Of a stretch of DNA of 32,000 nt, positions 1,636 to 23,257 are shown piece after piece; positions within the stretch are counted from its first letter, which is position 1, and every line of letters starts with the position of its first letter. The DNA comes from Aciduliprofundum boonei T469 (lineage in GTDB: Archaea > Thermoplasmatota > Thermoplasmata > Thermoplasmatales > Aciduliprofundaceae). The stretch lies in NCBI RefSeq assembly GCF_000025665.1, contig NC_013926.1, positions 300,001-332,000 of the forward strand, written 5' to 3'. The translations under genes and the position numbers were made by a program. The notes beneath the pieces are model-generated. The model made no database searches, was not told where the DNA came from, and worked only from the letters and a program-made list of their open reading frames with translations.

Positions 1636-2213
1636 ATACGAGCATAATTTTCGCAGGAGTTGGAGGTCAGGGGGTGCTAACCGCATCGAGCATCGTGGGA
1701 AAGGCAGCTTTGCTATCAGGCATAAATGTGGTTATGAGCGAAGTTCACGGCATGGCCCAGCGTGGAGGAATCGTCGTGACTGAGATGAAAATCGGCGAGG
1801 CAAAGAGCCCACTCATAGGCAAGGGAGAGGCCGACATAATTGTAGGCTTCGAGCCCGTGGAAGCGTACAGGGCACTCCCCAAAGCGCATAAGGGAAGTTA
1901 TGTTATAGTTAATACCGAACCGATAATTCCAATAACTGCCTCTCTTGGAGATTCTTCCTATCCAGAAGTAAATGAGCTCTTGGAAAATATGAAGGACTTG
2001 AATGTTATACCCATAGAGGCCACGGAGCTCGCTAGAAAGGCGGGAGATTCTATAACAACGAACATAGTCATGCTCGGTGCCCTTGTAAAACTCCCAATAT
2101 TCCCTATAGAAAAGGAAAAAATAAAGGAGGCAATAAAGCAAAGCATAAATCCACGGTACCACGAATTGAACTTTAAAGCTTTTGAGATGGGCTACGAAGC
2201 TGTAGAGATTTAA
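1632..2213 (+). CDS. iorB: Indolepyruvate:ferredoxin oxidoreductase beta subunit
   Basis: 193 aa. N-terminal GVGGQGV loop typical of the gamma/IorB domain of 2-oxoacid:ferredoxin oxidoreductases. ATGA overlap with iorA at 1632-1635. Confidence 0.85.
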   Translation: MNTSIIFAGVGGQGVLTASSIVGKAALLSGINVVMSEVHGMAQRGGIVVTEMKIGEAKSPLIGKGEADIIVGFEPVEAYRALPKAHKGSYVIVNTEPIIPITASLGDSSYPEVNELLENMKDLNVIPIEATELARKAGDSITTNIVMLGALVKLPIFPIEKEKIKEAIKQSINPRYHELNFKAFEMGYEAVEI

Positions 2214-2719
2214 TACCTCTTATATTGTTTTTCTTCCATCTTTCTATTCCATAGGAGCAAAACAAATGCTATCACTACAATTATCATACCAAGGCAGCAA
2301 ACTCCACCAGATGCGTAAATACCGTACATAAGAGTATTCATCAAACTTTCCTCAGATATTAGAACCGCTACTTCTGCATCTGTGTTTTCATCATTCTTTA
2401 TAACCAACTCATATTGTCCGTTTGCATTGGTTATATTTATGGAGTACGCATTTGTATCATTTCCTTGAGATAACAATGTGCCATTAGGCGCATAAAATTC
2501 ATAGGATATATTGGTGGGAGAACTTATCAAAATGGAATAATTCCCAGTCAAATTTATGGATATGCTCTTGGAAGAATTAGCTCCTACCTTGATAACTTTA
2601 GTTTCTTTAATTCCGTTAGCATAAAATACACCTAAAATCACAACCGCAACCACGATTAGAATCACACCAATTAAGAGCAGAATTGTAGATTTTCGCATAA
2701 TAAAATATTGAATGCGCAT
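2210..2719 (-). CDS. Hypothetical bitopic surface protein: N-terminal TM/signal anchor, beta-rich ectodomain with several N-x-S/T sequons, C-terminal TM helix
   Basis: ATG at 2719 (alternative ATG at 2698). Hydrophobic stretches STILLLIGVILIVVAVVILGVF and GGVCCLGMIIVVIAFVLLLW. Sequons NSS, NLT, NYS, NIS, NGT, NDT, NIT. No family recognised. Confidence 0.6.
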   Translation of the reverse strand: MRIQYFIMRKSTILLLIGVILIVVAVVILGVFYANGIKETKVIKVGANSSKSISINLTGNYSILISSPTNISYEFYAPNGTLLSQGNDTNAYSINITNANGQYELVIKNDENTDAEVAVLISEESLMNTLMYGIYASGGVCCLGMIIVVIAFVLLLWNRKMEEKQYKRY

Positions 2720-2769
2720 ATATTAAGATTTTTCAAAAGAATTAAATAAGCTTTGAGCATATTTATCTT

Positions 2770-3741
2770 GTGGATTACATTTCTGCAGGAGACATTGAAA
2801 AGTACTCGTACTGCCCATTGAGCTGGTGGCTGAGCAGGAATGAAAAGCATAAGGAAAATGAGGGTGTGAGAAGGCACAGGGAAATCAGCAAGGGAGCTGC
2901 AGATATGAAGAAAAAATACAAACAGATGAAAGAGTTTGAGAGCATGGCCATTTATTTTTCCATAGGTGCCACAATAATATCTCTTGTGGGCATATCCTTC
3001 ATATACACTTCACCCATACTAAGCAGGATGTTCATTCTTTTCTCAATTTTATGGCTGGGCTTCTCCTTTTATTTGCTATGGAAGGCAGATAAATATGCTA
3101 TTTTAGTGGAGAGAAAAAATGCAGAGAGAATTATGGTTATAGCATCGGCAGCAGCCACAACATTCTCGATATTTTCGGTAACATTCATTCTTCCCCCAAA
3201 TTACACCCTCGGCTATGTTCTGGAAGTTCTATCCCTCCTATGGCTCGTATTTGCCACTTATTTTCTCTATATGGCTATGAAAAGAGATATCCAATACAAT
3301 GAGATTAAGAAAAAACTACAGCTTCCAGATGGGGAAATTGTATACATTGATGATTTGCAAAAGAGCCCCATACTGAAAAGCGAGAAATACAAAATATGGG
3401 GAAGACCTGATTTACTCATAAAAATGGGAGATGATTATATTCCAGTGGAAATAAAGACAGGTAGAGTGCCCAGGGGCCCGCATTTTTCGCATATTATGCA
3501 ACTTACAGCATACATGGTGCTTGTGGAGGAAAATTACAAGACTCCACCTTATGGATTACTCAAATATGGTCCAGTGATATATAAAATTGAATATGAGGAG
3601 GACTTGAAGAACATAATGCTCCAAAAGGTAAAGGAGATGAGGGAAGCGCTGAAAACTGGAGAGGTGCATAGGAATCATAACAAAGTTGGAAAATGCCTGC
3701 ACTGCTCTCGCAGAGAACTGTGTCCAGAGAGATTGAGTTAG
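2770..3741 (+). CDS. Cas4/RecB-family PD-(D/E)XK nuclease with a 4-Cys Fe-S signature, interrupted by four predicted TM helices
   Basis: GTG start; there is no in-frame ATG before the conserved N-terminal motif. The N-terminal sequence YSYCPLSWW carries Cys15. Nuclease core GRPDLL...IPVEIKTGR (D214, E227, K229), then QLTAY. C-terminal CLHCSRRELC matches C-x2-C-x5-C. Four hydrophobic segments lie at about aa 59-79, 84-104, 121-141 and 147-169, between Cys15 and the core. Confidence 0.75.
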   Translation: MDYISAGDIEKYSYCPLSWWLSRNEKHKENEGVRRHREISKGAADMKKKYKQMKEFESMAIYFSIGATIISLVGISFIYTSPILSRMFILFSILWLGFSFYLLWKADKYAILVERKNAERIMVIASAAATTFSIFSVTFILPPNYTLGYVLEVLSLLWLVFATYFLYMAMKRDIQYNEIKKKLQLPDGEIVYIDDLQKSPILKSEKYKIWGRPDLLIKMGDDYIPVEIKTGRVPRGPHFSHIMQLTAYMVLVEENYKTPPYGLLKYGPVIYKIEYEEDLKNIMLQKVKEMREALKTGEVHRNHNKVGKCLHCSRRELCPERLS

Positions 3742-4528: not shown

Positions 4529-4915
4529 ATGTCATGGAGCAAGATGAGGGAATACATATTGCACATAAGCTTAGCATTGTTCATTTGGGGTTTATACTGG
4601 ACAATAACAGGCGGGTACTGGGTATTACAATCCACAGGATTCATAAAAAAAGATCCGGGGATGGATTACTTAACCGCATGGGCAGGAGACTGGAACTACT
4701 GGTTCTTGATAATCGGTGTTTTTATAGCCATAGCAGGCGGATGGTATGTATTTGACACTCTCAGAAAAAGACTGAAATTTGAAGAGTATATAAACTCTGA
4801 GAGCAAAAGAGAATTTGTGAACAATCTTAGAGAACTGGAAGAAATATCATACAAGCTTGGAGAGAAGTATCAAAATAGGTTGGAAGAGAAAAAGAGAGAA
4901 TGGAGAGTAAAGTAA
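4529..4915 (+). CDS. Small membrane protein (2 TM helices + charged C-terminal helix), hypothetical
   Basis: The track ORF opens at GTG 4454, inside the upstream gene. ATG 4529 (or 4544) is more plausible. TM segments YILHISLALFIWGLYW and WFLIIGVFIAIAGGWYVF. Its 3' end overlaps the next gene's ATG by 16 nt. Confidence 0.55.
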   Translation: MSWSKMREYILHISLALFIWGLYWTITGGYWVLQSTGFIKKDPGMDYLTAWAGDWNYWFLIIGVFIAIAGGWYVFDTLRKRLKFEEYINSESKREFVNNLRELEEISYKLGEKYQNRLEEKKREWRVK

Positions 4916-6735
4916 TTTTTCTGGTTATTATCCTCCTTCTCATTCCGTATTCTCATGGAGAGATTGGAGAAAACGCTGCCAAGGAGCATCTTTTAATATA
5001 TGAAGCAAGCCCGTATCCCTACGCAAAAACAGATATGGAATATGTTTGCATTTTTAACCCATTAAATGTAAAAATAAATTTAAACGGTTATTTTATAACT
5101 GATTTTGAAGGTAAGCTTATTCTCCACGGCTCAATTACACCTAATTCAAAAATATACATAGCCCAAAATTCTTCATCTTTCCTTAACTTTATGGGTTTCT
5201 ATCCAAATTACACATACGCAGAGCTCAAAGATGGTAAATTCTCCCTAGCAAACAAGGGTGACGAAATTGCCCTTTACAACGGGTCAAAAATGGTGGACAT
5301 GGTGATTTATGGAAATTCAAAATACAATGGCACAGGATGGATTGGCAAGCCATTAAAACTAACCCAGGGACATATAATTAGAAGAAAAAATCTAATAGAT
5401 ACAAATACACCCAAAGATTGGAGCACATACCATGTAATAGGTCAAAGTGATTTTAAGCCAGAAGTATTCAAAGCATCTTTGGAAATATTTCCCTATCCTG
5501 ATAAATGGAAAGAGGTTTTGAGATTCACTAAAGAAGCAAAAAGCAAAATTCTCATAGAATCTTACACAATGGATAGCCTCGCCCTTGAAAAAGTGCTTGA
5601 AGAAAAATTGAAAGATGGTGTTGAAGTAAATATACTATTGGACGGCTCTCCAATCGGGGGCATTAAAGATTCGGAAAAATACATCTTGCAGAGGTTATAT
5701 TTAAAGGGTGCAAATATAAAATTCATGATCAACGAGCCCTCCAAAGGCATATACGACAGATACACATTCTTGCATGCAAAGTTCATAATAGTTGATGATG
5801 ATAAAGTACTTGTATCAACTGAAAATTTTGGAGATTCGTCCCTATCACCTTGTGGAAATAGGGGATATGGAGTTATAGTTAGAAACGAGAATTTTGCAAG
5901 GTACATGGTAAGGGTATTTTACGATGATTCTAAAAATGTAGAAGACATAGAGAATTATTCCGGCTATTTCCAAAATGTAAGTTTAGAGGAAAATAGAATA
6001 GAATTGCGAAGAGCAACATTTAGCAGTGTGAATCTCACCGCCTATATAGAGCCACTAATAGCACCCGATTTCTCATATGCTCTCTTCCAAAGCTTTGTAT
6101 CGGGGCAGAGAGACCTTAAAATAGAGGCTCTCTACATAGACAATAATGTTTGGAATATGTTGAAAAATAAAACATATCGAGCTTTAGTTCAATACAGAAG
6201 GGAAGGAGAGAATGCAAGGTTGTTTGATGGATACGAGCATTACATTCCATATCTACATGCAAAGCTGATTATCGGGGATTCTTCCGTACTTGTTGGAAGT
6301 ATGAACTTTGGAATATCCTCCATGCTTAGGAACAGAGAAGTATCCCTGATAATAAAAAGCAAAAATGCGGCAAATTATCTATCAAAAATATTTGATTACG
6401 ATTGGGACGGAAAATACAAGCCCATAATATTCGCCCATATAATTGAAGAGAAAAATGAGTTAACTATAGATTTATCAAAAAGCGTTGGAAATATAAAGGA
6501 CTACATAATTTATGTTGATGGAAAGAAAATTTATGAGACAAACGATGCAATTATTCACTTAAAATTAGGTTCGGGAGTTCATAAGATAAAAATCATTGCC
6601 ATAGATTACTGGGGAAATACTGCAAGTTTGGAGAAAAATGTAAAAATTGAAGGGAGTACATTTGATCCGAGACTCATAATACTCTTAGTATTTCTTGCAT
6701 TCTTCTTGTATGAAATTTGGAAGAATCATGGATGA
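4900..6735 (+). CDS. Surface-anchored phospholipase D superfamily protein: signal peptide + lamin-tail domain (LTD) + two HKD motifs + Ig-like domain + C-terminal TM anchor
   Basis: Signal peptide MESKVIFLVIILLLIPYSHG. LTD-like LLIYEASPYP...EYVCIFNP...INLNGYFITD...KGDEIALYNG...DMVIYG. HKD motifs LHAKFIIVDDDKVLVSTENFG (His at nt 5773) and LHAKLIIGDSSVLVGSMNFG (His at nt 6256). C-terminal LIILLVFLAFFLYEIW. Confidence 0.85.
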   Translation: MESKVIFLVIILLLIPYSHGEIGENAAKEHLLIYEASPYPYAKTDMEYVCIFNPLNVKINLNGYFITDFEGKLILHGSITPNSKIYIAQNSSSFLNFMGFYPNYTYAELKDGKFSLANKGDEIALYNGSKMVDMVIYGNSKYNGTGWIGKPLKLTQGHIIRRKNLIDTNTPKDWSTYHVIGQSDFKPEVFKASLEIFPYPDKWKEVLRFTKEAKSKILIESYTMDSLALEKVLEEKLKDGVEVNILLDGSPIGGIKDSEKYILQRLYLKGANIKFMINEPSKGIYDRYTFLHAKFIIVDDDKVLVSTENFGDSSLSPCGNRGYGVIVRNENFARYMVRVFYDDSKNVEDIENYSGYFQNVSLEENRIELRRATFSSVNLTAYIEPLIAPDFSYALFQSFVSGQRDLKIEALYIDNNVWNMLKNKTYRALVQYRREGENARLFDGYEHYIPYLHAKLIIGDSSVLVGSMNFGISSMLRNREVSLIIKSKNAANYLSKIFDYDWDGKYKPIIFAHIIEEKNELTIDLSKSVGNIKDYIIYVDGKKIYETNDAIIHLKLGSGVHKIKIIAIDYWGNTASLEKNVKIEGSTFDPRLIILLVFLAFFLYEIWKNHG

Positions 6736-7588: not shown

Positions 7589-10500
7589 GTGAGTAGCATG
7601 CTACGGAACAAATTTAAATTTGATATAAACAGAACAACAGTGCTTGTCGTTGTAGCTTTGGCATCTATTATGGCCTTGGGATTTTTTATAAGGGTGTACT
7701 GGGCCATAGGACCATCTATTCAGTACGGCTATTCTGTATCTGGCGGGTCTGATTCATACTATCATGAAAGAATCCTTAATTATATTCTCACATCTAAGCA
7801 TCAATTATTAAATGACCCTATGCTCAATTACCCTATGGGTTTAGATAACCCTAGGCCTCCCCTATTCCATTGGGCAATAATACTGGCCAGTATGATATTC
7901 TACCCGTTCCTAAACGCATACGATTCAGCAGTTCTTATGCTAATCCTATTTCCAGCAATATGGGGAACACTGACATTAATACCTGTATATCTGCTGGGTA
8001 AGGAAGCTTTCAACAGGAAAGTTGGATTGGTGGCTGCATTCTTCCTAGCCATAATGCCTGCAAACATAATGAGAAGTGTCGCCACTCAGGCAGACTGGGA
8101 TGCCTTTGATCTATTTTTCATAACTTGGATGTTCTATTTCTTCCTGATCGCTTTAAAAACAACAAAATCAAAGAACTGGATTAAAAACTGGTTCAATAAA
8201 GATGACCTCAAGCATGGGGTTTCAGTATTTATTAGAGAGAATAAAAAACCCATTGTCTATAGCGCCCTAGCAGGTGCTTCATTAGGCGCCCTTGCCCTAG
8301 CTTGGAAAGGATACACATATGCCCTCTCAATCTTAGCAATATATCTGGTTATCCAAGTTATAATAAACAGATTAAGAAACAGGTCCAATTTCCATATTTT
8401 AGTATTCACCGCCATATATACAATAGTTGGATTTCTAATGGCATTCCCCTGGTACTTTGTAACTCATAGGCTTGGTAGTTGGTATGAGATACCACTCATC
8501 GTAATACTTATTCCTCTATTCACAGCCCTATACTTTGAAATGACCTCAAAGTACCCGTGGCCCTTCGTATTCCTTGCAGGAGGCATAGGTTTTGGAGTAT
8601 TTGCCGTTATCCTAAATGTGTTCTTCCCAGATGTATGGGGCAAGCTTGTGAGCGGACAGGGCTATTTTGTGCATAGTAAACTATATTCAACCATTGCAGA
8701 GGCGCAGCCAGCAACTATGGGAGTCCTAAGCATGTCCTTCGGCATAGGCATATTCCTTCTATCCATCACCGGAGTTTTCTATCTCATCTACCTACTCAAA
8801 AAGAGGTTAAGCGAGCATTACATATTCTTCGTTATTTACACCAGCATAGCCATATTCATGGCAATTTCTGCAGCGAGGTTTATGTTTAATGCATCACCTC
8901 CTGTGGCGCTCACTGCAGCAGTATCTTTAATCTGGCTCATAGATCTGGTTGATATCAAAAAATCCATGGAAGAATTCAAGAAATATCGGGGCTCATGGAG
9001 AAAGGCATTGAAGAGAAATATAAAAATTTCTCAAATTACTGTAATACTCGTAATAGCATTTCTTGTGATATTTCCTACCGTTTGGTACGCTGTTGATGCT
9101 GGAATACCTTATGAAACCAAAGATAAATTCGACAAGCAAATATACAACAGCATGCCCTCGTTTATGAGACCCAATGAGACAACTTACAACAAATCGTCCC
9201 CATGGTATTTGGGAGCATTTGGCTATTCTATTCCAAAGCCAGAATATCCATGGCAACGGGCTTGGAAATGGTTAAGTGAGCAAGATAATTCTACGCCACC
9301 AAAGGACCGTCCTGCATTTCTTTCTTGGTGGGACTATGGATTCCAAGCTGTAGCACAGGGCAAGCATCCCACAGTGGCAGATAACTTCCAAGATGCTTAC
9401 AGATTCGCCGCCCAGGTTATAACGGCTCAAAATGAAAGTGAAGTGATCTCCCTATTCATCGCAAGATTTTTAGAGGCAGATTTCCACAAAAATGGAGGCA
9501 CATTGAGCCAGCCCATTATGAATGCCCTCATAAAGTATGCTGGGCAAGATAAAGCAAATAAAATTATTGATATTTTAAATGACCCAGATAAATACAGGAG
9601 AATAATAATTGAGAATCCACAAATATATGGACTTTATTCAAACGACATAGACTCTAAAAACGCCCTTTATGTGGCAATAAAGGGCACATTAGCATATCTA
9701 CCTCAAAATAAACTTATCTCAATGTATGATGCTATTAGAAACTCAACAGGATGGGATATAAGATACTTCGCCGTGGACTACCGTCTCTTCCCATTCTCCG
9801 GTATGAGAACAGGTATCTTCTATGCTCCTGCAAAGTTGGGTGATAGAAGAATATATCAGGCAGGAGGTACAGTGGTACCCTACGATTTCTACGACCTAAA
9901 AGCTGTGGATGCCAATGGAAATACTTATGATATAGATAAAGTACCTGCAAATGCCCAAATTGTGAGTTATAAAATAATTTACAAACCTATGTTTTACCAT
10001 TCTCTGCTATATCGCACCTTCATAGGTTATTCTGGAGAGGATATTGGTAAGGGAAATGGAATACCTGGATTCTCGCCAGATCTTGGAAGCTACCAACCTA
10101 TGCAAGCCTGGAACATGACACATTTCAAGTTGGTTTACAAAACAGCATACTGGAATCCGTATAAGGATTATAAAAATCACACCAAAGCATGGAAGCCCAT
10201 ACCAATAGAGCTGGCGTTGAAATATAAGAGAGAGGGAAAGGGTACTGTGGAATTGAACCCTCCTGCTTATCAAGTATTGCCCAACGATGTGGTAATTGTG
10301 AAATTCTACGAAGGTGCCGTAATACAGGGATATATAAGATTATCCACAGGAGAGCCTCTTAAGCATATAAGGGTGACTATTTTCGATGAATATGGTATAC
10401 CCCATGCTACAACTTTCACCAACGATACAGGATATTTCAAACTTCTATCTGTAGCAGGGAACATAACCTTGGTGGCATCTACAGATGGACATTATGATAA

Positions 10501-13500
10501 GCTAAGGATGATTGATAAAACAATTCTATATCACACCTTGATTAATGTAAGCCAAGAGCAGGCAATGCGCTTAAAACCCAATTTTGTGATCACAAAGAAT
10601 ATTACAATAAAACCCGCAACCCTCGATGGCGTTGTTTACTACGATATGAACCATAATAATAAATTTGATAAGGGAGATATAAAGCTCAATAATGCAACAT
10701 TTATTTTGGAGAACTCAACTTACGGTTACCATGTTTCTGTACCAATAAAGAACGGAGAATATCAGATTAAAGATATCCCACCACACGAATACAATGTGAA
10801 TTTGATTATAAATGGTAAAATGTTTAAGGATGTTGAAAAAGTTACACTCAATACAGGTATGGCTTTAACAAAAGATATTGCTCTTAAGCCATCATTCATC
10901 AAGGGTTCTGTTACATATACAAATGGCACACCTGCAGCAAATGCAACAATTAAACTTACTGGCTTATATTCAAAATATACGGCTCATACAGACCAGAACG
11001 GTAGCTTCAAAGTGCTTGTTGTGCCAGACAATTATACATTGGTCGCAAGCAAGCAGGATTATTACTCAAAGAAATTTGATGCTGCTGTTAGTAACTGGAA
11101 TATGACTGTGAATGAGAACATTACGCTTACAAAGGGATACACGCTCAGCGGCCATGTGGTTTACAATGGGGTGCCTATAGAAAGTGCAGTTGTGAAGGTA
11201 AAAAGTATAACTGAATACAATGTTTATATTGCTCAAACAGATAAAAATGGAGATTTCCGATTACACCTGCCGGGAGGGATATATACAATATACATACTCA
11301 CCACTTATCAAAATTACAAGATCGCCTATGTTGGCGTATTGTCTTTAAATCAAGATACTTCAAAAGTCATGAGAATGGAAAGAGCATACGCACTATATGG
11401 TAAAATTACATCTAAAGAAAAAACCGTTGGAGATATTGAGATCTCGCCCTTCAAAGGTGAGACTTTCTCAATGTGGTTCGCAAATCAGACTGGTTATTTC
11501 TATATATATCTCCCAGAGGGAACATACTCTATAGGATTCTTAGGATTTAACAATAGCTATAAGCCATTGTTCAGCAGGGCAATCATACATCTTAACAAGG
11601 ATACCGAAATAAATCCAATCTTGCAAATGGCAGAGACAATAAAAGGCTATGTATATGCGGGTAAAAATCAAACACTAAAGAATGGGGTAGTTATGCTGAA
11701 AGATGATAAGGGTTATTATGAAGTACGCAGCATACCCCCAGACGGAGAATTTACCCTGGGCTCAACAATAAATTATCAGTTGGACGCATTGGTATATGGA
11801 TATCATATAACCAAAGTATACACCCAAGGAAACAAAAAGATTATAAAAGCATCTCCAAATGAGGTGGAAATTAGAGGAAATATCTATGTGAACAATGCAA
11901 CAAATAGAGTGCCTTTGACAATTAAGTTTATATCTTCTAACAGAACATACACATTAACACATGTGATTGAGAGATATTCTATAAAAGTCTTGCCAGGAGA
12001 TTACACAATCGAAATTGTAGGTAACAACATAGAATATGTCTATGGAAAAATAGTGGCAAAGGCAGAGGTTGGCGAGGCACTGTTACAAAAGGACCTTCAC
12101 ATAAAGGCGCTCGCCCATGTGAATATAGTTTCTCAGGCGGATGTGGTTTACTGGTATCAAAATGGAACATTGGTGAAAACTGGAAAGGTTGTGGATATTG
12201 CCCCTGGAACATACACATTGTATTTAAGAAATTATGAGAATGCAAGGATAGTAAGAGTAAGTATAACACAAAATACCACTATTGAGGTAAATCTTAAAAG
12301 TGCTCACTTTGTAAATATAAAGCAAGAGAACTTCACCTACATGCTCCCAGTTAAAATATCCTCCCCTGCGGGAAATATCACATGGAAGACCCCAACAATA
12401 GCATTGCCTGCTGGGCATTATACATTTACCATAAAGGTAAAGAAGATGGTCTGGGGTAAATATTATCTCTATTTCAGTCAAGTTGATGAATACATAAGCG
12501 GCACAACTACCATAGTGTTGCATGTAACTACAACTCAGATCCTATCCAAGGTATCTGGCATTGTAACAATTGATAACCGTGGAGCTGCAAATGCAATAAT
12601 AAAATTCGTACCTTCAAATTCTGAGTTGCAAAATGTAACCGTTACCACAGATTCAGCTGGATATTATACAGCAAAACTAACTCCAGGAGATTATATGGTC
12701 TATTCATACTATGTGATGGGTGGTAAAAAGTACGCTTATATTGGAGAGATAAATGCTCAAAATTCCCAGAACCTCAATATTGAATTCCAAAAGGGCTACT
12801 TGCTCTACGGTGGAGTGTATCTAAACAACTCAAAGGTCTCAGTTATGGTAAATATAGAAACTCCTTACGGCACACTTAGTTATAAGGCAAATGGATACTA
12901 TTATGCAATACTCCCTCAAAACAATTACACGGTAAGTGCCAGCACATACCGTATAGAGTATGGACAAAAAGTAGATTACAAATTCACAAAGAAAGTTAAT
13001 CTCACGGCAGATACCTCTTTGGATGTTAGGCTTCAAAGACAGAATGTGCATATGATTACCGTTGATATATTGGGTTATGATAAGAATGTAGAGCCCTACA
13101 AGAATATGTGGATGTTAGTCAAACTTAAGAACACTGGAAACTCTCCTGAAAATGTTAAATTCGAGGTATTTGGACAGTGGAAGATAGTCAATCCACAGAG
13201 CTATAAAATGATACCTGGAGATGTTAAAGTCGTGAGTTTGGGTCTTAAAGTGCCTTTAATCAAAGCTGGAGATAACGAAGTGCATCTAAGGGTTAAATAT
13301 ACACAGTTCACAGACAAGTACTTCCATGTGAATGTGGCAAAGTACTATAATACCTCAGCAAATTATTCCCTCGTTTCTTGGAATGAAAATGCCCTCATAT
13401 ACAGAATAAAGGTTACGAACAATGGAAATACCTGGGTAAATTACACATTCTCTGTTCTCAATTCTAAGGAGCTGGAGACGAGGGGATGGGTCGTCAAAAT

Positions 13501-13819
13501 CTATGGGAAGTTGGGCGAAACAAATCATCTTAATGTATCTTCTAACAGCGAGGGTTCTATAGAGGTAAGAATAGAAGCAACAAAGAGTAGACCAGGCACC
13601 TCTGTGCCGGTACAGATTGTGGTAAAGGGAATGGGCAAGAGCATCCTAGTAAACCTGCCTCTGAAAGAAACATACATTAAAACATCCTCAGTTTACATCC
13701 AAGCTCCAGGAATTACAAACTACACATCCTTTGAAATGCAATCTTCCTGGTATGTTCTTTGGGGCCTTACAATTGCAACCTTCGTGGCGTTCATAATATT
13801 CTGGAGGTGGAAGAAGTGA
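7589..13819 (+). CDS. aglB: Archaeal oligosaccharyltransferase AglB (STT3 family) with a C-terminal multi-beta-sandwich extension of about 1180 aa and a terminal TM helix
   Basis: Multi-pass N-terminal membrane domain with GGSDSYYHER in the first loop. WWDYG motif at nt 9326-9340 (aa 580-584). From about nt 10290 there are at least nine CarboxypepD_reg-like modules (e.g. TNDTGYFKL, TDQNGSFKVLV, TDKNGDFRLHLPGGIYTI, TDSAGYYTAKLTPGDYMV), then two CARDB/NEW3-like modules, then WYVLWGLTIATFVAFIIFWRWKK. Start is GTG 7589 or ATG 7598. Confidence 0.9.
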   Translation: MSSMLRNKFKFDINRTTVLVVVALASIMALGFFIRVYWAIGPSIQYGYSVSGGSDSYYHERILNYILTSKHQLLNDPMLNYPMGLDNPRPPLFHWAIILASMIFYPFLNAYDSAVLMLILFPAIWGTLTLIPVYLLGKEAFNRKVGLVAAFFLAIMPANIMRSVATQADWDAFDLFFITWMFYFFLIALKTTKSKNWIKNWFNKDDLKHGVSVFIRENKKPIVYSALAGASLGALALAWKGYTYALSILAIYLVIQVIINRLRNRSNFHILVFTAIYTIVGFLMAFPWYFVTHRLGSWYEIPLIVILIPLFTALYFEMTSKYPWPFVFLAGGIGFGVFAVILNVFFPDVWGKLVSGQGYFVHSKLYSTIAEAQPATMGVLSMSFGIGIFLLSITGVFYLIYLLKKRLSEHYIFFVIYTSIAIFMAISAARFMFNASPPVALTAAVSLIWLIDLVDIKKSMEEFKKYRGSWRKALKRNIKISQITVILVIAFLVIFPTVWYAVDAGIPYETKDKFDKQIYNSMPSFMRPNETTYNKSSPWYLGAFGYSIPKPEYPWQRAWKWLSEQDNSTPPKDRPAFLSWWDYGFQAVAQGKHPTVADNFQDAYRFAAQVITAQNESEVISLFIARFLEADFHKNGGTLSQPIMNALIKYAGQDKANKIIDILNDPDKYRRIIIENPQIYGLYSNDIDSKNALYVAIKGTLAYLPQNKLISMYDAIRNSTGWDIRYFAVDYRLFPFSGMRTGIFYAPAKLGDRRIYQAGGTVVPYDFYDLKAVDANGNTYDIDKVPANAQIVSYKIIYKPMFYHSLLYRTFIGYSGEDIGKGNGIPGFSPDLGSYQPMQAWNMTHFKLVYKTAYWNPYKDYKNHTKAWKPIPIELALKYKREGKGTVELNPPAYQVLPNDVVIVKFYEGAVIQGYIRLSTGEPLKHIRVTIFDEYGIPHATTFTNDTGYFKLLSVAGNITLVASTDGHYDKLRMIDKTILYHTLINVSQEQAMRLKPNFVITKNITIKPATLDGVVYYDMNHNNKFDKGDIKLNNATFILENSTYGYHVSVPIKNGEYQIKDIPPHEYNVNLIINGKMFKDVEKVTLNTGMALTKDIALKPSFIKGSVTYTNGTPAANATIKLTGLYSKYTAHTDQNGSFKVLVVPDNYTLVASKQDYYSKKFDAAVSNWNMTVNENITLTKGYTLSGHVVYNGVPIESAVVKVKSITEYNVYIAQTDKNGDFRLHLPGGIYTIYILTTYQNYKIAYVGVLSLNQDTSKVMRMERAYALYGKITSKEKTVGDIEISPFKGETFSMWFANQTGYFYIYLPEGTYSIGFLGFNNSYKPLFSRAIIHLNKDTEINPILQMAETIKGYVYAGKNQTLKNGVVMLKDDKGYYEVRSIPPDGEFTLGSTINYQLDALVYGYHITKVYTQGNKKIIKASPNEVEIRGNIYVNNATNRVPLTIKFISSNRTYTLTHVIERYSIKVLPGDYTIEIVGNNIEYVYGKIVAKAEVGEALLQKDLHIKALAHVNIVSQADVVYWYQNGTLVKTGKVVDIAPGTYTLYLRNYENARIVRVSITQNTTIEVNLKSAHFVNIKQENFTYMLPVKISSPAGNITWKTPTIALPAGHYTFTIKVKKMVWGKYYLYFSQVDEYISGTTTIVLHVTTTQILSKVSGIVTIDNRGAANAIIKFVPSNSELQNVTVTTDSAGYYTAKLTPGDYMVYSYYVMGGKKYAYIGEINAQNSQNLNIEFQKGYLLYGGVYLNNSKVSVMVNIETPYGTLSYKANGYYYAILPQNNYTVSASTYRIEYGQKVDYKFTKKVNLTADTSLDVRLQRQNVHMITVDILGYDKNVEPYKNMWMLVKLKNTGNSPENVKFEVFGQWKIVNPQSYKMIPGDVKVVSLGLKVPLIKAGDNEVHLRVKYTQFTDKYFHVNVAKYYNTSANYSLVSWNENALIYRIKVTNNGNTWVNYTFSVLNSKELETRGWVVKIYGKLGETNHLNVSSNSEGSIEVRIEATKSRPGTSVPVQIVVKGMGKSILVNLPLKETYIKTSSVYIQAPGITNYTSFEMQSSWYVLWGLTIATFVAFIIFWRWKK

Positions 13820-19069: not shown

Positions 19070-19675
19070 TTATCGTATTATTTTAGCATCTAGCACCACG
19101 CAATCATTTTCTCTTGCAAGCACAGGGTTTAAGTCCATACCCTCCACATCAGCGTTCTCCTCAACAAATTTTGAAACTTTGAGAAGCAATTCAATTATAG
19201 CCTCCTTGCTTACCCTTACTCCCCTATACCCTTCCAGTATTTTTCTGCCCTTTATTTCATTAAGCATAAGCTCGGCATCCAAGCGGGATATTGGTATGAC
19301 CCTGAAAGTCACATCTTTGAAAACCTCCGTAAATATGCCACCGAGACCAAACATTATGGCATGCCCGAAAGTGGGGTCTTTTGTTACGCCAACAATTACT
19401 TCCAAACCTCCAGAGAGCATCTCCTCAACTAAAACGGGTGAGGAGAATTTTTCCATCAAAATTTTTACTTTTTCCTTTAATTCCTCTTTATTCTTTATGT
19501 TCAAAATAACTCCCCCAACATCGCTCTTGTGCAGTATTTTCTCGCTTGCAACCTTCGCTACTACAGGGTAATTCAAATCCAAATTATATATCTCTCTCAA
19601 ATCATTTATCAATGCTCCTTCTGGAACTTTTATTCCATAATCTTTCAGCAAGAGCTTTGCTTCATACTCATTCAT
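19070..19675 (-). CDS. acdB: ADP-forming acetyl/acyl-CoA synthetase, beta subunit (ATP-grasp)
   Basis: 201 aa. EYEAKLLLKDYGIKVP...YPVVAKV...HKSDVGGV...FGLGGIFTEVFKDVTFR...NPV. ATGA overlap with acdA at 19672-19675. Confidence 0.85.
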   Translation of the reverse strand: MNEYEAKLLLKDYGIKVPEGALINDLREIYNLDLNYPVVAKVASEKILHKSDVGGVILNIKNKEELKEKVKILMEKFSSPVLVEEMLSGGLEVIVGVTKDPTFGHAIMFGLGGIFTEVFKDVTFRVIPISRLDAELMLNEIKGRKILEGYRGVRVSKEAIIELLLKVSKFVEENADVEGMDLNPVLARENDCVVLDAKIIR

Positions 19676-21066
19676 TCCACTCCCTCCAGATATTCCAACA
19701 ATTTTGCCCTATATCTCAACACCCTCAGAGCTTTTACACTTCTCTCAATACTTGGATACACGGGAACCTTGTTATCCTCAAACTTGCGCATCATTCTCAA
19801 TGCGAACTCGCTTCCTATGGTGCCAACAACAATTGGCTTATCGCCTTCCCTATGCCATTTTGTAATTATATTTACCAGTTTTTCACTTATAAGAGGAGTC
19901 TGGAATAGTGCATAAACCAATATGGCATCAACATTAGGATCATCGTTTAATGCGGCGAGAACTCCATCGTAATCATCATCACTTGCCTGAGCAGTCATAT
20001 CTACAGGATTCTCTACAGAGGCAAAAGGCACCACCTCATCCCTTATTCTCCTCTTTATTTCATCGCTCAATTCTGCCATCTTCATCCCTATCCCTCGCAC
20101 CTCGCTCTCAATGTAATCCGTTGTAACAACTCCAACTCCCCCAGCAGATGTGACCACTGCTATCCTATCACCCTCTATTGGTTTTCCATATGCAAGGGCT
20201 CTAGCATAATCCACAAGCTCTATCTCATCATAGGCCCTTATAACCCCACATTGCTTGAAGGCCCCATCTGCCACGGCATCGCTTCCACCTAAAGCCCCCG
20301 TGTGCAAACTCGCCGCCTTTCCACCTCTCTTGGTTCTTCCTGCTTTGAGCACAACTATTGGCTTTTTCCTGCTCACATTCTTAGCTACTCGCATAAATTC
20401 TCTGCCATTGGCGAAGCTCTCAATATACATTATGATAACTTTGCTCTTTTCATCCTCTCCAAAATACTGGAGCAATTCATTTTCATTCACATCCACTCTA
20501 TTGCCCAAATTTATGAACGAGGAGAATCCAACATCGTACATAGAGACAGAATCCATAGTGAGCAATCCCAATGCTCCACTCTGAGTTATGAAAGCAATAT
20601 CTCCATCACCTGGAAATCTCGAGCGTTCAGGTACTACGAGAGCAGTGTTTACTCCCGTGCTGGGAATATAAATGCCAACGGTGTTTGGCCCTATAATCCT
20701 CGCATTGTACTTCTTTGCAATCTCCAAAATTTTTCTCTCTCTTTCTTTTCCCTCCTTTCCTGTCTCTCCAAATCCTCCTGCGATGGGGATTATGAACTTG
20801 GATTTTTTAGCAACATCCTCAAAGATCTTAACTGTAACTTCTGCAGGAAGGGTGATAACACTCAAATCAACTTCCTCGGGCACATCATTTATGGAAGGAT
20901 ACACCTTAAATCCGAGAATCTGGCCACCCTTTGGATTCACAGGATATATTCTTCCCCCGTAGCCATTATTTTTAAGGTTCTCAAGAACAACATAGCCTAT
21001 CTTGTTGGGATGTGATGATGCACCCACGACAGCAATACTATCTGGCGAGATAAGCTTATCAAACAT
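19672..21066 (-). CDS. acdA: ADP-forming acetyl/acyl-CoA synthetase, alpha subunit (CoA-binding / succinyl-CoA-synthetase-like)
   Basis: SIAVVGAS...YPVNPK...GPNTVG...ITQSGA...ASLHTGALGGS (phospho-histidine loop). 464 aa. Confidence 0.9.
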   Translation of the reverse strand: MFDKLISPDSIAVVGASSHPNKIGYVVLENLKNNGYGGRIYPVNPKGGQILGFKVYPSINDVPEEVDLSVITLPAEVTVKIFEDVAKKSKFIIPIAGGFGETGKEGKERERKILEIAKKYNARIIGPNTVGIYIPSTGVNTALVVPERSRFPGDGDIAFITQSGALGLLTMDSVSMYDVGFSSFINLGNRVDVNENELLQYFGEDEKSKVIIMYIESFANGREFMRVAKNVSRKKPIVVLKAGRTKRGGKAASLHTGALGGSDAVADGAFKQCGVIRAYDEIELVDYARALAYGKPIEGDRIAVVTSAGGVGVVTTDYIESEVRGIGMKMAELSDEIKRRIRDEVVPFASVENPVDMTAQASDDDYDGVLAALNDDPNVDAILVYALFQTPLISEKLVNIITKWHREGDKPIVVGTIGSEFALRMMRKFEDNKVPVYPSIERSVKALRVLRYRAKLLEYLEGVE

Positions 21067-21121
21067 AAAAGGGAAATAAAATAAAAAGTTAAATAAATTG
21101 CCTGAGATGTCTTAGCAAGAT

Positions 21122-23257
21122 TTAACTGCACTTATCCAGTGGCTTTGGTGTTACCTTCGTGGATTTTCCTGTTTTCAGGATTATCCTTGCATCCACTACA
21201 CTTAGGCCTTTCTCGTAAACTATAACTGGATTAGCATCCACTTCTTTTATAACATCTCTGAAATCCCAAACAAGCTGGGATAACCTGCTAACCGCTTCTG
21301 CTATTGCTTCAATGTCCTTGGGTTTCTCACCGCGTGCTCCCTTCAATATTCCATAGCCATTTATTTCCTTGACCATATCAAGTGCCTCATCCTTGCTGAA
21401 TGGTGCTATACGGAATGTTACATCCTTCAAAATTTCCACAAATATGCCACCGAGGCCGAACATAACAGTTGGTCCAAATTGAGAATCATTGATACTTCCA
21501 ATAATTGTCTCCGTACCCCATGGCTCCATATGCTGCACATAAACACCCATGATTTCCGCGTGAGGATCGTAGCGCTCTGCATTCTCTATAATCTCTTGGA
21601 AGGCCTTGCGCACTTCATCATCATTCTTTATATTCACCTTTACACCGCCTGCATCACTTTTATGCACTATATTTGGAGAGACTATTTTCATTACCACAGG
21701 ATACTCAACTGCACGGGCAATCTTAACGGCCTCCTCAGGATTCCGAGCCATCTTACCCTTTGGAATCGGCAATCCATAGGCGGCAAATACCTCCTTCGCT
21801 TCGGGCTCAGTGAGTAAGCTTCTTCCGCATGCCTTGGCCTTGCCTATTATTGCCTCCACTTTCTCCTTGTTAACCTTATAAGGTACAAATTCCTTTGATG
21901 CTTTTTCCAAGTATCTTCCATAGGTTCTGAGGGCTGCAAGGGCTCTAACGGCTGCATGTGGACTATTGTAGTAGGGTATTCCATTCTCTATGAGCCATTC
22001 TCCCGCTTTCACGCTTCTCTCTCCGCCCACTAAACTAACTGCAATGGGCTTATCCACACCACTATCCTTATAAGCCTTGTAAATTCCCTCAGCAATATTT
22101 TGAGGATCCGTGAAGGATGTTTCGCAATAAAGCACAACCACTCCATCAACCCAGTCATGCTTCAAAGCATCCCTTATTGAACCCTCGTATTCAGGCCTAT
22201 CGGCCATGCCAGTTAAATCCACAGGGTTTTTCGGATTTCCAAACTCTGGCATATGCTTAAACATGAGCAATTTTAGGTCATCTGGTGCATCCTTTATTGG
22301 CACTCCATACTTCTCAGCAGCATCTGTAGCTAGAACTCCTACGCCACCACCATTGGTTATTATGAGAAGATTATCTCCCCTCATTGGCTTCTGCAAGGCG
22401 AGAGCCATTGTCTCATCAAATAGAGCATCTAGATTTTCGGCCCACACAACATGACCCTGCTTGAATGCTGCCTCATATATCTTCGTGCTTCCAGCCAAAC
22501 TTCCTGTATGGGATGCTGCTGCAGCTGCACCACGCTTTGAAGTGCCTGCCTTAAGCGCAATTATTGGCTTCTTTGAATTCTTACAGGCGTTTAGGAATTT
22601 GCGTCCATCCTTCACACCTTCAATGTAGAGAGATATGACATTTGTGTCCTCATCCTTGTTGAAGTAATTGATTAGGTCTCCAAAATCCAAATCTGCCATG
22701 TTTCCAATACTTATCATATGTGAAATGCCAACTTTATCAACCCAAGTCCTTGCATCCATTGCTATTAGCAAAGCACCACTTTGGGATATCATTGCTGCCT
22801 TCCCAGGATATGGCAAGTATGGGCCAAAGGATGCATTCATATGAAGCGGGTTATTCATTATACCCACGACATTCGGACCGAGGATGCGCATCCCGTATTT
22901 GTGGGCAATATCCACAACCTCTCTCTCCAAATCCTCTCTGCCAACTTCGCTAAAGCCAGAAGCTATTATAACAAGGCCTTTAACTCCCTTCTTTCCACAT
23001 TCTTCCGTAACGGCAGGCACAAGCTTTGCAGGTACAACTATAAGGGCAATATCCACCTTATCAGGAATGTCCAAAACACTGTGATAGCATTTGAGCCCTG
23101 CAACTTCATCTGCCTTGGGATTTACAGGATAAATCTTGCCCTCATAGCCTGAGTCAATGAGATTCTTAACGCATTGATGTCCTATGGCCTTTGGATCACG
23201 ACTTGCTCCGACGATTGCTATACTTTTCGGCTTGAATATTGGATCTAAATTCTCCAT
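21122..23257 (-). CDS. ADP-forming acetyl/acyl-CoA synthetase, fused alpha-beta single-chain form
   Basis: 711 aa. The N-terminal ~460 aa is paralogous to acdA (SIAIVGAS, YPVNPK, GPNVVG, ASHTGSLAGS). The C-terminal ~220 aa is paralogous to acdB (EPEAKEVFAAYGLPIP, HKSDAGGV, FGLGGIFVEILKDVTFR). GGAGGT RBS 7 nt upstream of the ATG. Confidence 0.9.
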   Translation of the reverse strand: MENLDPIFKPKSIAIVGASRDPKAIGHQCVKNLIDSGYEGKIYPVNPKADEVAGLKCYHSVLDIPDKVDIALIVVPAKLVPAVTEECGKKGVKGLVIIASGFSEVGREDLEREVVDIAHKYGMRILGPNVVGIMNNPLHMNASFGPYLPYPGKAAMISQSGALLIAMDARTWVDKVGISHMISIGNMADLDFGDLINYFNKDEDTNVISLYIEGVKDGRKFLNACKNSKKPIIALKAGTSKRGAAAAASHTGSLAGSTKIYEAAFKQGHVVWAENLDALFDETMALALQKPMRGDNLLIITNGGGVGVLATDAAEKYGVPIKDAPDDLKLLMFKHMPEFGNPKNPVDLTGMADRPEYEGSIRDALKHDWVDGVVVLYCETSFTDPQNIAEGIYKAYKDSGVDKPIAVSLVGGERSVKAGEWLIENGIPYYNSPHAAVRALAALRTYGRYLEKASKEFVPYKVNKEKVEAIIGKAKACGRSLLTEPEAKEVFAAYGLPIPKGKMARNPEEAVKIARAVEYPVVMKIVSPNIVHKSDAGGVKVNIKNDDEVRKAFQEIIENAERYDPHAEIMGVYVQHMEPWGTETIIGSINDSQFGPTVMFGLGGIFVEILKDVTFRIAPFSKDEALDMVKEINGYGILKGARGEKPKDIEAIAEAVSRLSQLVWDFRDVIKEVDANPVIVYEKGLSVVDARIILKTGKSTKVTPKPLDKCS

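Follow-up and report, generated by a model that had tools for sequence, protein, structure and literature searches.

The Cas4 proteins that have been characterised are soluble and about 170–220 residues long. The forms associated with CRISPR (short palindromic repeats that are clustered and regularly interspaced) are represented by COG1468, PF01930 and TIGR00372 and by the structures 4IC1, 4R5Q, 8D3L and 7MI5. A further group, solo-Cas4, is encoded outside cas loci and known mobile elements, forms order-level clades and is inherited vertically under moderate-to-strong purifying selection (Hudaiberdiev et al., 2017, PMC5704561). Solo-Cas4 occurs in most archaea, and its role is acknowledged as an open question (PMC5704561, PMC12501428). 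The solo-Cas4 of Methanosarcina mazei, a soluble oligomer, has an iron–sulphur (Fe-S) cluster, cleaves double-stranded DNA and slows growth upon overexpression (PMC12501428). Here we describe a gene from the archaeon Aciduliprofundum boonei T469 which encodes a Cas4-family protein with a predicted block of transmembrane (TM) helices inside its nuclease domain. The gene (2770..3741, plus strand) lies in a stretch of 32,000 nucleotides (positions 300,001 to 332,000 of NC_013926.1), referred to as the window; it starts with GTG and encodes 323 residues. The protein shares the listed traits of the solo-Cas4 group. It differs from the M. mazei enzyme in being, as predicted, stapled to the membrane, and a related form from Chloroflexi is split into two membrane subunits.

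According to the original prediction, an earlier reading of this DNA from its letters alone, a membrane-embedded Cas4 is not known to have been characterised. Our literature search agrees with this, as no description of a membrane Cas4 was found in the searched literature. The survey of Hudaiberdiev et al. (2017, PMC5704561) is silent on membrane segments, the sole occurrence of ‘membrane’ being an unrelated gene name, and the word is absent from the M. mazei paper (PMC12501428), the only biochemical study of an archaeal solo-Cas4. The ‘previously unnoticed Cas4-like clade’ reported for JCVI-syn3.0 (PMC13621843, 2026) is different, namely a soluble Cas4-DEDD fusion. While the family is known, three features thus appear to be undescribed in the searched literature: the insertion of membrane hairpins, the modular variation of their copy number and the splitting into two subunits.

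By its sequence and predicted fold the window protein is a member of the Cas4 family, and by its genomic context it is a solo-Cas4. The assignment to the Cas4/RecB nucleases, already made in the original prediction, is borne out by profile scores above the curated thresholds and by the nearest solved sequences and folds (4IC1, 8D3L and 4R5Q). With the NCBIfam equivalog model TIGR00372 (cas4), for which the curated cutoff is 65, the protein reaches 82.2 bits, the match falling into two stretches. The Pfam families PDDEXK_1 (PF12705; E 9.5e-15, 55.6 bits) and Cas_Cas4 (PF01930; E 2.3e-7, 31.5 bits) exceed their gathering scores of 22 and 22.7, and eight Cas4 models of PADLOC match with E values of 1e-12 to 1e-23. 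A match to the PADLOC ‘4TM effector’ model, which was marginal (E 0.0064) and had no stretch passing alone, was not used. When the family profile was compared with the sequences of the PDB, only Cas4 proteins were found: SSO0001 (4IC1), the type I-C Cas4 (8D3L) and Pcal_0546 (4R5Q). The AlphaFold2 model has a mean predicted local distance difference test score (pLDDT) of 83.5, and its best Foldseek matches are Cas4 (8D3L, 4R5Q), Cas4-Cas1 (7MI5), Dna2, MGME1, ACE1 and AdnAB.

The motifs quoted in the original prediction were all located: YSYCPLSWW at residues 12–20, RPD at 212–214, VEIK at 226–229, QLTAY at 244–248 and CLHCSRRELC at 309–318. With CRISPR-associated Cas4 the protein shares the fold, the Cys helix and the G...H, D...ExK, QxxxY and CxxCx5C motifs. 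Residues 1–45, comprising the Cys helix and the ‘EG..H’ motif, align to residues 6–57 of Cas4 in 8D3L (chain I). C15 (nt 2812–2814), which is predicted to be the fourth Fe-S ligand, lies in the Cys helix. H36 (nt 2875–2877), a predicted metal ligand which aligns with the His motif of 8D3L, belongs to the EGxxxH motif together with G32. The core carries GRPD (D214, nt 3409–3411), PVEIK (E227 and K229, nt 3448–3456), a GRxPRGPxFSH loop and QLTAY (Q244, Y248). The last segment, residues 301–323, is the most conserved of the protein, with 13 of its 23 columns conserved at 90% or more, and aligns with the C-terminal Cys motif of 8D3L. C15, C309, C312 and C318 are the only cysteines.

The window protein departs from the compact, soluble single-domain form of CRISPR-associated Cas4 in its length of 323 residues and in four predicted TM helices: about 140 residues of hairpins and stalks are placed between the His motif and the core. 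Two sites are divided by this insert: among the Fe-S ligands, C15 is parted from C309/C312/C318, and in the active site, H36 from D214/E227/K229. In AddB, Dna2 and Exo5, one N-terminal and three C-terminal cysteines staple the nuclease domain around a [4Fe-4S] cluster. The window protein has the same 1 + 3 arrangement, and Dna2 and AdnAB are among its Foldseek matches. AddB, Dna2 and Exo5 are, however, soluble modules of helicase–nuclease machines or mitochondrial enzymes, and none of them is known to us to carry a membrane insertion that separates the first Cys from the core. Reasoning from the characterised Cas4 enzymes, we consider it likely that the assembled domain is an active metal-dependent [4Fe-4S] DNA nuclease.

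A 19-residue Kyte–Doolittle scan called four hydrophobic segments of 20–22 residues each, at residues ~58–78, 86–105, 121–141 and 148–169. They occupy nt 2941–3276, practically the span of ~2944–3276 for which four such segments between Cys helix and core had been claimed. The AlphaFold2 model contains four long helices at residues 31–76, 82–106, 112–140 and 145–183. The first of these continues unbroken from the soluble domain into TM1, and the last from TM4 into the soluble domain; judging from this modelled secondary structure, the nuclease domain appears to sit on a two-helix stalk right beneath the membrane.

The orientation was examined by the distribution of charges in 114 full-length members of the family, taking the pre-TM1 stalk, the TM2–TM3 loop and the post-TM4 segment as cytoplasmic flanks. 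On average, 10.8 Lys and Arg residues are found in these flanks and 0.66 in the two short loops (residues 79–85 and 142–147), the bias being present in 114/114 sequences. The TM2–TM3 loop has a mean of 3.06 Lys and Arg per ~15 residues, as opposed to 0.3 in the outer loops, and TM3 is essentially free of charged residues throughout. The positive-inside bias in all sequences together with the uncharged TM3 therefore points to an N-in/C-in topology, as an Fe-S enzyme requires. It had been argued that an even number of helices would return both halves to one side of the membrane; four helices are predicted, and by the positive-inside rule both halves lie on the cytoplasmic side. We regard a Cas4 domain interrupted by a TM block, with both termini inside, as a very probable architecture.

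The predicted four-helix block is, by sequence comparison, a tandem duplication of one two-helix hairpin module. Hairpin 1 (residues 52–110) and hairpin 2 (residues 113–175) were aligned in full register by hhalign with a probability of 99% (E 6.5e-18, score 81.1), the maximum score among 60 column shuffles being 15.8. Both hairpins have a common pattern, E-[RS]-x-hydrophobic...A-T...[ST]-F in helix A and S-L-x-W-L-x-x-A-x-Y-F-L-Y in helix B, and a hairpin hidden Markov model (HMM) finds two copies in the window protein. An exhaustive profile search of 1.84 billion representatives gave 2227 matches at E ≤ 1e-3, 202 of them at E ≤ 1e-30. The relatives fall into length classes of ~175, ~265, ~325 and 516–645 residues. 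The hairpin HMM occurs once in the 265-residue class, twice at 329 residues and three to four times at 516–645 residues. Among the representatives, 40 have one TM helix (the split-gene class of Chloroflexi), 21 have two, 33 have four and 13 have eight; odd numbers above one are nearly absent. The N-terminal [YFW]C helix is kept in 18, 28 and 12 of the forms with two, four and eight helices, respectively, and those without it look N-terminally truncated. S5, A6, Y14, C15, W19, G32 and H36 are invariant across the four-, two- and eight-helix and the split forms. One multi-hairpin relative (P0187, 635 residues, from a 76-kb JGI contig) has two C-terminal TRAM domains (PF01938, 57 bits). As TRAM domains bind nucleic acids, this is consistent with a cytoplasmic nucleic-acid substrate.

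The class with a single TM helix (~175 residues) comes from Chloroflexi/Anaerolineae, including the cultured Aggregatilinea lenta. We considered whether these are forms lacking the first Cys helix, as an argument from parity would have it. This was rejected, as in all four Chloroflexi loci examined an open reading frame (ORF) of 83–90 codons, located directly upstream and overlapping the start of the nuclease gene by 4 nt, encodes that helix and one TM helix. The small subunit has the Cys helix in the form ISASE..F.YC.R.WW, the G...H motif and one C-terminal TM helix, and aligns with the N-terminus of the window protein; the large subunit (175–181 residues) has one TM helix, the nuclease core and CxxCx5C. 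The gene tables assign no Pfam family to the small subunit, and the one example that was scanned gave a weak match to the Exo5 N-terminus (E 0.0014). As read from these sequences, the Chloroflexi enzyme is the two-helix form cut between the two helices of its hairpin, with one TM helix on each product, and the 4-nt overlap indicates that the two genes are translationally coupled. The natural split therefore suggests that the N-terminal piece and the core cooperate on one and the same face of the membrane, and that the hairpin belongs to the enzyme as an integral element. It may be regarded as an evolutionary complementation experiment, according to which the halves should be able to assemble in trans. 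The predicted completion of a four-Cys cluster by Cys15 is independently supported: C15 is invariant, and in Chloroflexi the Cys/His piece with one TM helix is a separate, coupled small protein.

The family is large and predominantly archaeal. A search of 5.8 billion proteins gave 282 significant matches; among the best 120 of these, almost all are 320–350 residues long and cover 99–100% of the query, with identities from 100% down to ~40%. In a scan of one genome per GTDB species, 427 matches were confirmed, nearly all from Thermoplasmata/Thermoplasmatota, DHVE2 and Methanomassiliicoccales. Identity to the metagenome-assembled genome S013_35 is 93%. In an alignment of 26 sequences, the four cysteines, D214, E227, K229, Q244, Y248 and HRNH are invariant, and so are W95, W158, L159 and A162 within the hydrophobic block. 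According to the majority-residue frequencies in 38 sequences filtered to less than 70% identity, the TM helices (0.49–0.60) are better conserved than stalks and loops (0.36–0.38), but less well than the core (0.66); the Cys region reaches 0.81. In this set, the N-terminal region with its Cys/His motifs is conserved at 95% or more. D214, E227, K229, Q244, Y248 and H36 are each at least 95% conserved, as are A67, W95, L103, W158, L159 and A162 in the TM helices. The clades of a neighbour-joining tree (DHVE2, Methanomassiliicoccales-like and halo-alkaliphilic) agree with the taxon labels and with distinct blocks of conserved synteny. The sister branch from Chloroflexi corresponds to the ‘monophyletic Chloroflexi solo-Cas4’ of Hudaiberdiev et al. 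(2017, PMC5704561).

One contig labelled Candidatus Aenigmatarchaeota (JBKHKA010000001.1) also carries a membrane Cas4. Its synteny is that of halo-alkaliphilic Thermoplasmata (AcnX, Nudix and MtnA-like genes upstream, members of the families C1 and C10, described below, downstream), and its Cas4 groups with that clade in the tree. This points to a contig that was mislabelled or mis-binned, and not to an occurrence in DPANN archaea.

No tandem (CRISPR) array and no cas gene was found in the 32-kb window. The earlier statement that CRISPR and cas neighbours are missing thus holds; the remaining large ORFs of the window belong to metabolism, the cell surface or housekeeping. They encode IorA/B, a metallo-beta-lactamase-fold hydrolase, a DUF3198 protein with two TM helices, a surface enzyme with a lamin-tail domain (LTD) and phospholipase D (PLD) domains, a spermidine synthase, an STT3/AglB-like protein, an M50 protease, acyl-CoA synthetases, a PAS-GAF-HisKA protein, an Na/H exchanger, an NPP-type phosphodiesterase and a sedolisin-fn3 protease. 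A simple scan for CRISPR arrays in 93 related loci (1.27 Mb) found none; one flagged region (L040, 5397–5514) was rejected as an 18-residue coding repeat. Neighbour clusters were built from the ORFs of 85 non-redundant loci plus called-gene tables; for 80 GTDB loci they derive from raw six-frame ORFs, annotated by inspection and a few Pfam searches. Annotated neighbourhoods contain no cas gene and recurrent neighbours no cas cluster. Five clusters (C5, C14, C17, C32 and C41) were discarded because they consist of Arg-rich ORFs that run antisense to real genes of high-GC genomes. CRISPR-associated Cas4 differs in this respect too: the window gene is unlinked to cas1, cas2 and CRISPR, is vertically inherited and lies in a housekeeping context. 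The automatic label ‘CRISPR-associated protein Cas4’ is misleading for the membrane clade.

Taken together, the best explanation is probably that of a membrane-integral solo-Cas4 nuclease acting on DNA at the membrane. The two cytoplasmic pieces would re-associate to form one active site (H36 and D214/E227/K229, with Q244/Y248) and one four-Cys site. Folded around a [4Fe-4S] cluster and a divalent metal, both halves would make up a DNA nuclease, as in the characterised Cas4 enzymes, held on helical stalks just under the membrane. Confinement to the membrane could keep a nuclease without sequence specificity off the chromosome and nucleoid. Such sequestration is a plausible benefit, because the soluble M. 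mazei enzyme cleaves double-stranded DNA and slows growth when overexpressed. The substrate would then be limited to DNA appearing at the membrane, most plausibly ends entering via virus, conjugation-like transfer or uptake. This architecture is unusual in that a hairpin lies inside a catalytic domain, and active site and Fe-S cluster would be assembled from segments flanking the membrane block. As a large, slowly evolving solo-Cas4 clade, represented in hundreds of species of Thermoplasmatota and with a sister branch in Chloroflexi, is apparently built into the membrane, the inner membrane face may be the first concrete spatial clue to the function of solo-Cas4.

A precedent for action on incoming DNA is SNIPE of Escherichia coli (Nature 2026, PMC13190303), a TM-anchored cytoplasmic nuclease which cuts phage DNA during injection. 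Its confinement to the membrane guards against self-cleavage, as it is toxic when its TM segment is deleted. The likeness is a functional analogy only, consisting of a TM anchor and a cytoplasm-facing nuclease, both of them predicted for the window protein. SNIPE consists of GIY-YIG and DUF4041 domains with a single, poorly conserved N-terminal TM helix and is a patchily distributed bacterial defence gene. The anchor of the window protein, in contrast, is a conserved repeated hairpin inside a PD-(D/E)XK Fe-S domain, in a slowly evolving archaeal gene found phylum-wide, and profile searches with the window protein gave no GIY-YIG or DUF4041 match. If confinement does serve an attack on incoming DNA, a CRISPR-independent, spatial discrimination of self and non-self would extend the SNIPE principle to archaea with an unrelated nuclease fold. 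We put this specific role forward as tentative and consider it open to serious doubt.

Several observations weigh against a role in defence, or against taking the biochemistry for granted. Inheritance is predominantly vertical, as read from tree, synteny and a divergence like that of the neighbours. The identities of the window Cas4 to three related genomes are 93, 89 and 80%, compared with 90, 81 and 78% for IorB; neighbours that evolve faster in the same comparison are the spermidine synthase (87/74%), the PLD enzyme (80/53%) and a surface protein (82/59/38%). Membrane Cas4 genes are located amid housekeeping genes, not in defence islands (neighbours in related loci include TpiA, FBPase, Kae1, an aminotransferase, MtnA-like and Nudix proteins, AcnX, RFC, rpl15e and FtsZ), and none was found in the IMG/VR viral contigs scanned. 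A fold search of BFVD matched soluble Cas4-like nucleases only. The conservation of the TM hairpins suggests a specific membrane function beyond tethering, such as oligomerisation, a partner or lipid contact. Vertical inheritance, slow evolution, housekeeping context and conserved hairpin would fit a maintenance role located at the membrane, or a particular assembly in the membrane, at least as well. In addition, the C-terminal Cys region of the AlphaFold2 model, which holds no cofactor, has a pLDDT of only 40–57, and cluster binding, nuclease activity, substrate and localisation are predictions for every member of the family.

The same observations bear on a second possible reading, which we hold with reserve, namely that the enzyme processes the cell's own DNA at the membrane and has no role against foreign DNA. 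Examples would be end resection or clearance in segregation and division, turnover in stationary phase, or repair of membrane-attached replication intermediates. Order-level clades with conserved synteny, an evolutionary rate equal to or slower than that of core metabolic neighbours, and neighbours such as RFC, rpl15e/FtsZ, TpiA, Kae1 and MtnA-like genes all speak for it, as does the negative result with viral contigs. According to Hudaiberdiev et al. (PMC5704561), solo-Cas4 evolves like ‘regular’ genes and repair is among its proposed roles, and induction of the M. mazei solo-cas4 gene occurs in stationary phase and not upon challenge with virus (PMC12501428). However, no repair, replication or division gene is adjacent consistently across the clades (RFC and FtsZ were each seen at one locus), and the need for a conserved membrane hairpin in a repair nuclease is left unexplained. 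Slow evolution is also compatible with defence, as cas genes are generally without arms-race signatures (PMC5704561).

The LTD-PLD surface enzyme of the window raises the question of whether the membrane Cas4 is the inner half of a route for scavenging or uptake of extracellular DNA, in which LTD-PLD would bind and cleave DNA outside and Cas4 would degrade or process the strand inside for nucleotide salvage or recombination. From its sequence, the enzyme has at its N-terminus a hydrophobic segment interpreted as a signal peptide; a lamin-tail domain, two domains of the PLDc_2 type (HKD) and an Ig-like region follow, and a TM anchor forms the C-terminus, the same layout as that of the characterised extracellular nuclease ExeM (PMC6085458). 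Its PLD domains match nuclease-type models (DrmC, 2.6e-23), and LTD nucleases are present in DNA-degradation loci of sediment bacteria. In 30 of 88 loci, a member of this family is found within 5 kb of membrane Cas4, in one of two arrangements. All through one large clade, its gene precedes the Cas4 gene on the same strand, 0–22 nt upstream; in Aciduliprofundum, the window included, it follows 1.16 kb downstream. A PLD neighbour is, however, missing from two further large clades, from most DHVE2 loci and from all loci of Chloroflexi; neither a membrane DNA channel nor a nucleoside transporter accompanies the genes; the substrate of PLD enzymes may be lipids instead of DNA; and the two arrangements could be one ancestral linkage kept by descent. 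We therefore judge this route rather unlikely.

More speculative still, and improbable in our view, is a ring oligomer in which 4xN conserved TM helices, with their invariant Trp, Ala and Leu positions, would form or surround a membrane conduit and DNA would be threaded into an Fe-S nuclease ring, with the surface LTD-PLD enzyme as a partner in many lineages. In this the protein would resemble SSO0001, a toroidal Cas4, and the M. mazei solo-Cas4, which forms a high-order oligomer. If correct, it would mean a previously unrecognised, phylum-wide DNA-entry or DNA-processing machine in archaea and Chloroflexi, and would give solo-Cas4 a cellular role.

CRISPR adaptation in trans, i.e. trimming of prespacers for a Cas1-Cas2 encoded elsewhere in the genome, is very unlikely. 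The protein does pass the TIGR00372 ‘equivalog’ cutoff, and public databases carry the corresponding label. Against this stand the lack of cas1, cas2 and arrays in the window, of arrays in the 93 related loci and of cas genes among recurrent neighbour clusters; moreover, Hudaiberdiev et al. (PMC5704561) saw no functional link between solo-Cas4 and CAS-Cas4 and found solo-Cas4 in CRISPR-less genomes, and a membrane-stapled enzyme is hard to fit into the Cas4-Cas1-Cas2 geometry of 8D3L and 7MI5. An artefact (a frameshift or assembly fusion of two genes, or a hydrophobic but soluble insertion) can be practically discounted, having found no support apart from its superficial similarity to the genuine two-gene form of Chloroflexi, which is itself split exactly between the hairpin helices with one TM helix on each product, since the full-length architecture is retained from 100% to 38% identity across independent assemblies and in the 427 species-genome matches, the hairpin sequences are under purifying selection, and the hydrophobic segments have the length, the lack of charges and the positive-inside bias that TM helices typically show.

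Table 1. Features of the membrane Cas4 gene, its neighbours and related loci. Coordinates refer to the window or, where a locus is named, to that locus.
Feature	Coordinates	Strand	Basis
Complete gene, stop codon included	2770..3741	+	ORF; Cas4 profiles; full-length homologues
N-terminal piece, predicted cytoplasmic, residues 1–45: Cys helix ISAGDIEKYSYCPLSWW and EGxxxH motif	2770..2904	+	8D3L alignment; conservation
Predicted membrane hairpin 1: TM1 residues 58–78, outer loop 79–85, TM2 residues 86–105; conserved A67, W95, L103	2941..3084	+	Hydropathy; AlphaFold2 helices; hhalign; charge
K/R-rich loop joining the two hairpins, predicted cytoplasmic, residues 106–120	3085..3129	+	Charge distribution, 114 sequences
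Predicted membrane hairpin 2: TM3 residues 121–141, outer loop 142–147, TM4 residues 148–169; conserved W158, L159, A162	3130..3276	+	hhalign; hairpin HMM; charge
PD-(D/E)XK/RecB-type nuclease core, predicted cytoplasmic, residues 188–300	3331..3669	+	Pfam/NCBIfam stretch 196–319; Foldseek; invariant residues
Predicted C-terminal Fe-S cluster motif, residues 301–323: HRNH, then GKC309-x2-C312-x5-C318-PERL	3670..3738	+	Conservation; 8D3L alignment
A/T-rich ‘AATTAAATAA’, ~25 nt upstream of GTG	2740..2749	+	Read from sequence
Surface-anchored LTD + 2x PLDc_2 enzyme, 611 residues; tentative partner	4900..6735	+	Pfam; DrmC-type PLD models
DUF3198 protein, 123 residues, two TM helices, C-terminal DUF3198 (89.5 bits)	4544..4912	+	
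Divergently transcribed surface protein, 169 residues, N- and C-terminal TM helices, N-glycosylation-sequon-rich beta ectodomain	2210..2719	-	
Chloroflexi two-gene loci	L088 302-1104; L090 6732-7528; L091 6750-7537; L092 6753-7528		
C1-C6/C10 pair, examples	L003 8996-9798; L006 8990-9750; ~50 other related loci		

The A/T-rich element AATTAAATAA is a possible archaeal TATA box, which would be compatible with a leaderless transcript. Downstream of the Cas4 gene, the 3′ end of the DUF3198 gene overlaps the start of the LTD-PLD gene, so that these two are probably co-transcribed.

In two large clades of Thermoplasmatota, the 3′ end of the membrane Cas4 gene is abutted by a convergent gene pair. 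One partner, C1, encodes ~107 residues with two TM helices and a coiled coil and is present in 54 of the 85 loci. The other encodes a protein of ~155–170 residues with an N-terminal anchor and an ectodomain; the two clusters in which it was found, C6 and C10, represent one family (hhalign 97.9%). Neither C1 nor C6/C10 belongs to a Pfam family. Local equivalents were looked for in the window. The DUF3198 protein was rejected as a counterpart of C1 (hhalign probability 25%), and the 169-residue surface protein as a relative of C6/C10 (1–6%). The latter gene is syntenic within Aciduliprofundum only and evolves very fast.

Some other genes of the window have unusual features. The STT3/AglB-type oligosaccharyltransferase homologue (7589..13819, plus strand) is unusually large (2076 residues), with a long C-terminal extension of CarboxypepD_reg-like beta-sandwich repeats and a C-terminal TM helix. 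A protease of the pro-kumamolisin (sedolisin) type (27707..31306, plus strand; 1199 residues) has fibronectin type III (fn3)/Ig domains, and its gene contains a 294-bp tandem repeat (29972..30514; 1.8 copies, 93% identical) which duplicates an fn3-like module. Two adjacent paralogous ADP-forming acyl-CoA synthetases are encoded on the minus strand (19070..23257). For one of them, beta (19070..19675) and alpha (19672..21066) are separate genes, while the other is a fused alpha-beta form (21122..23257).

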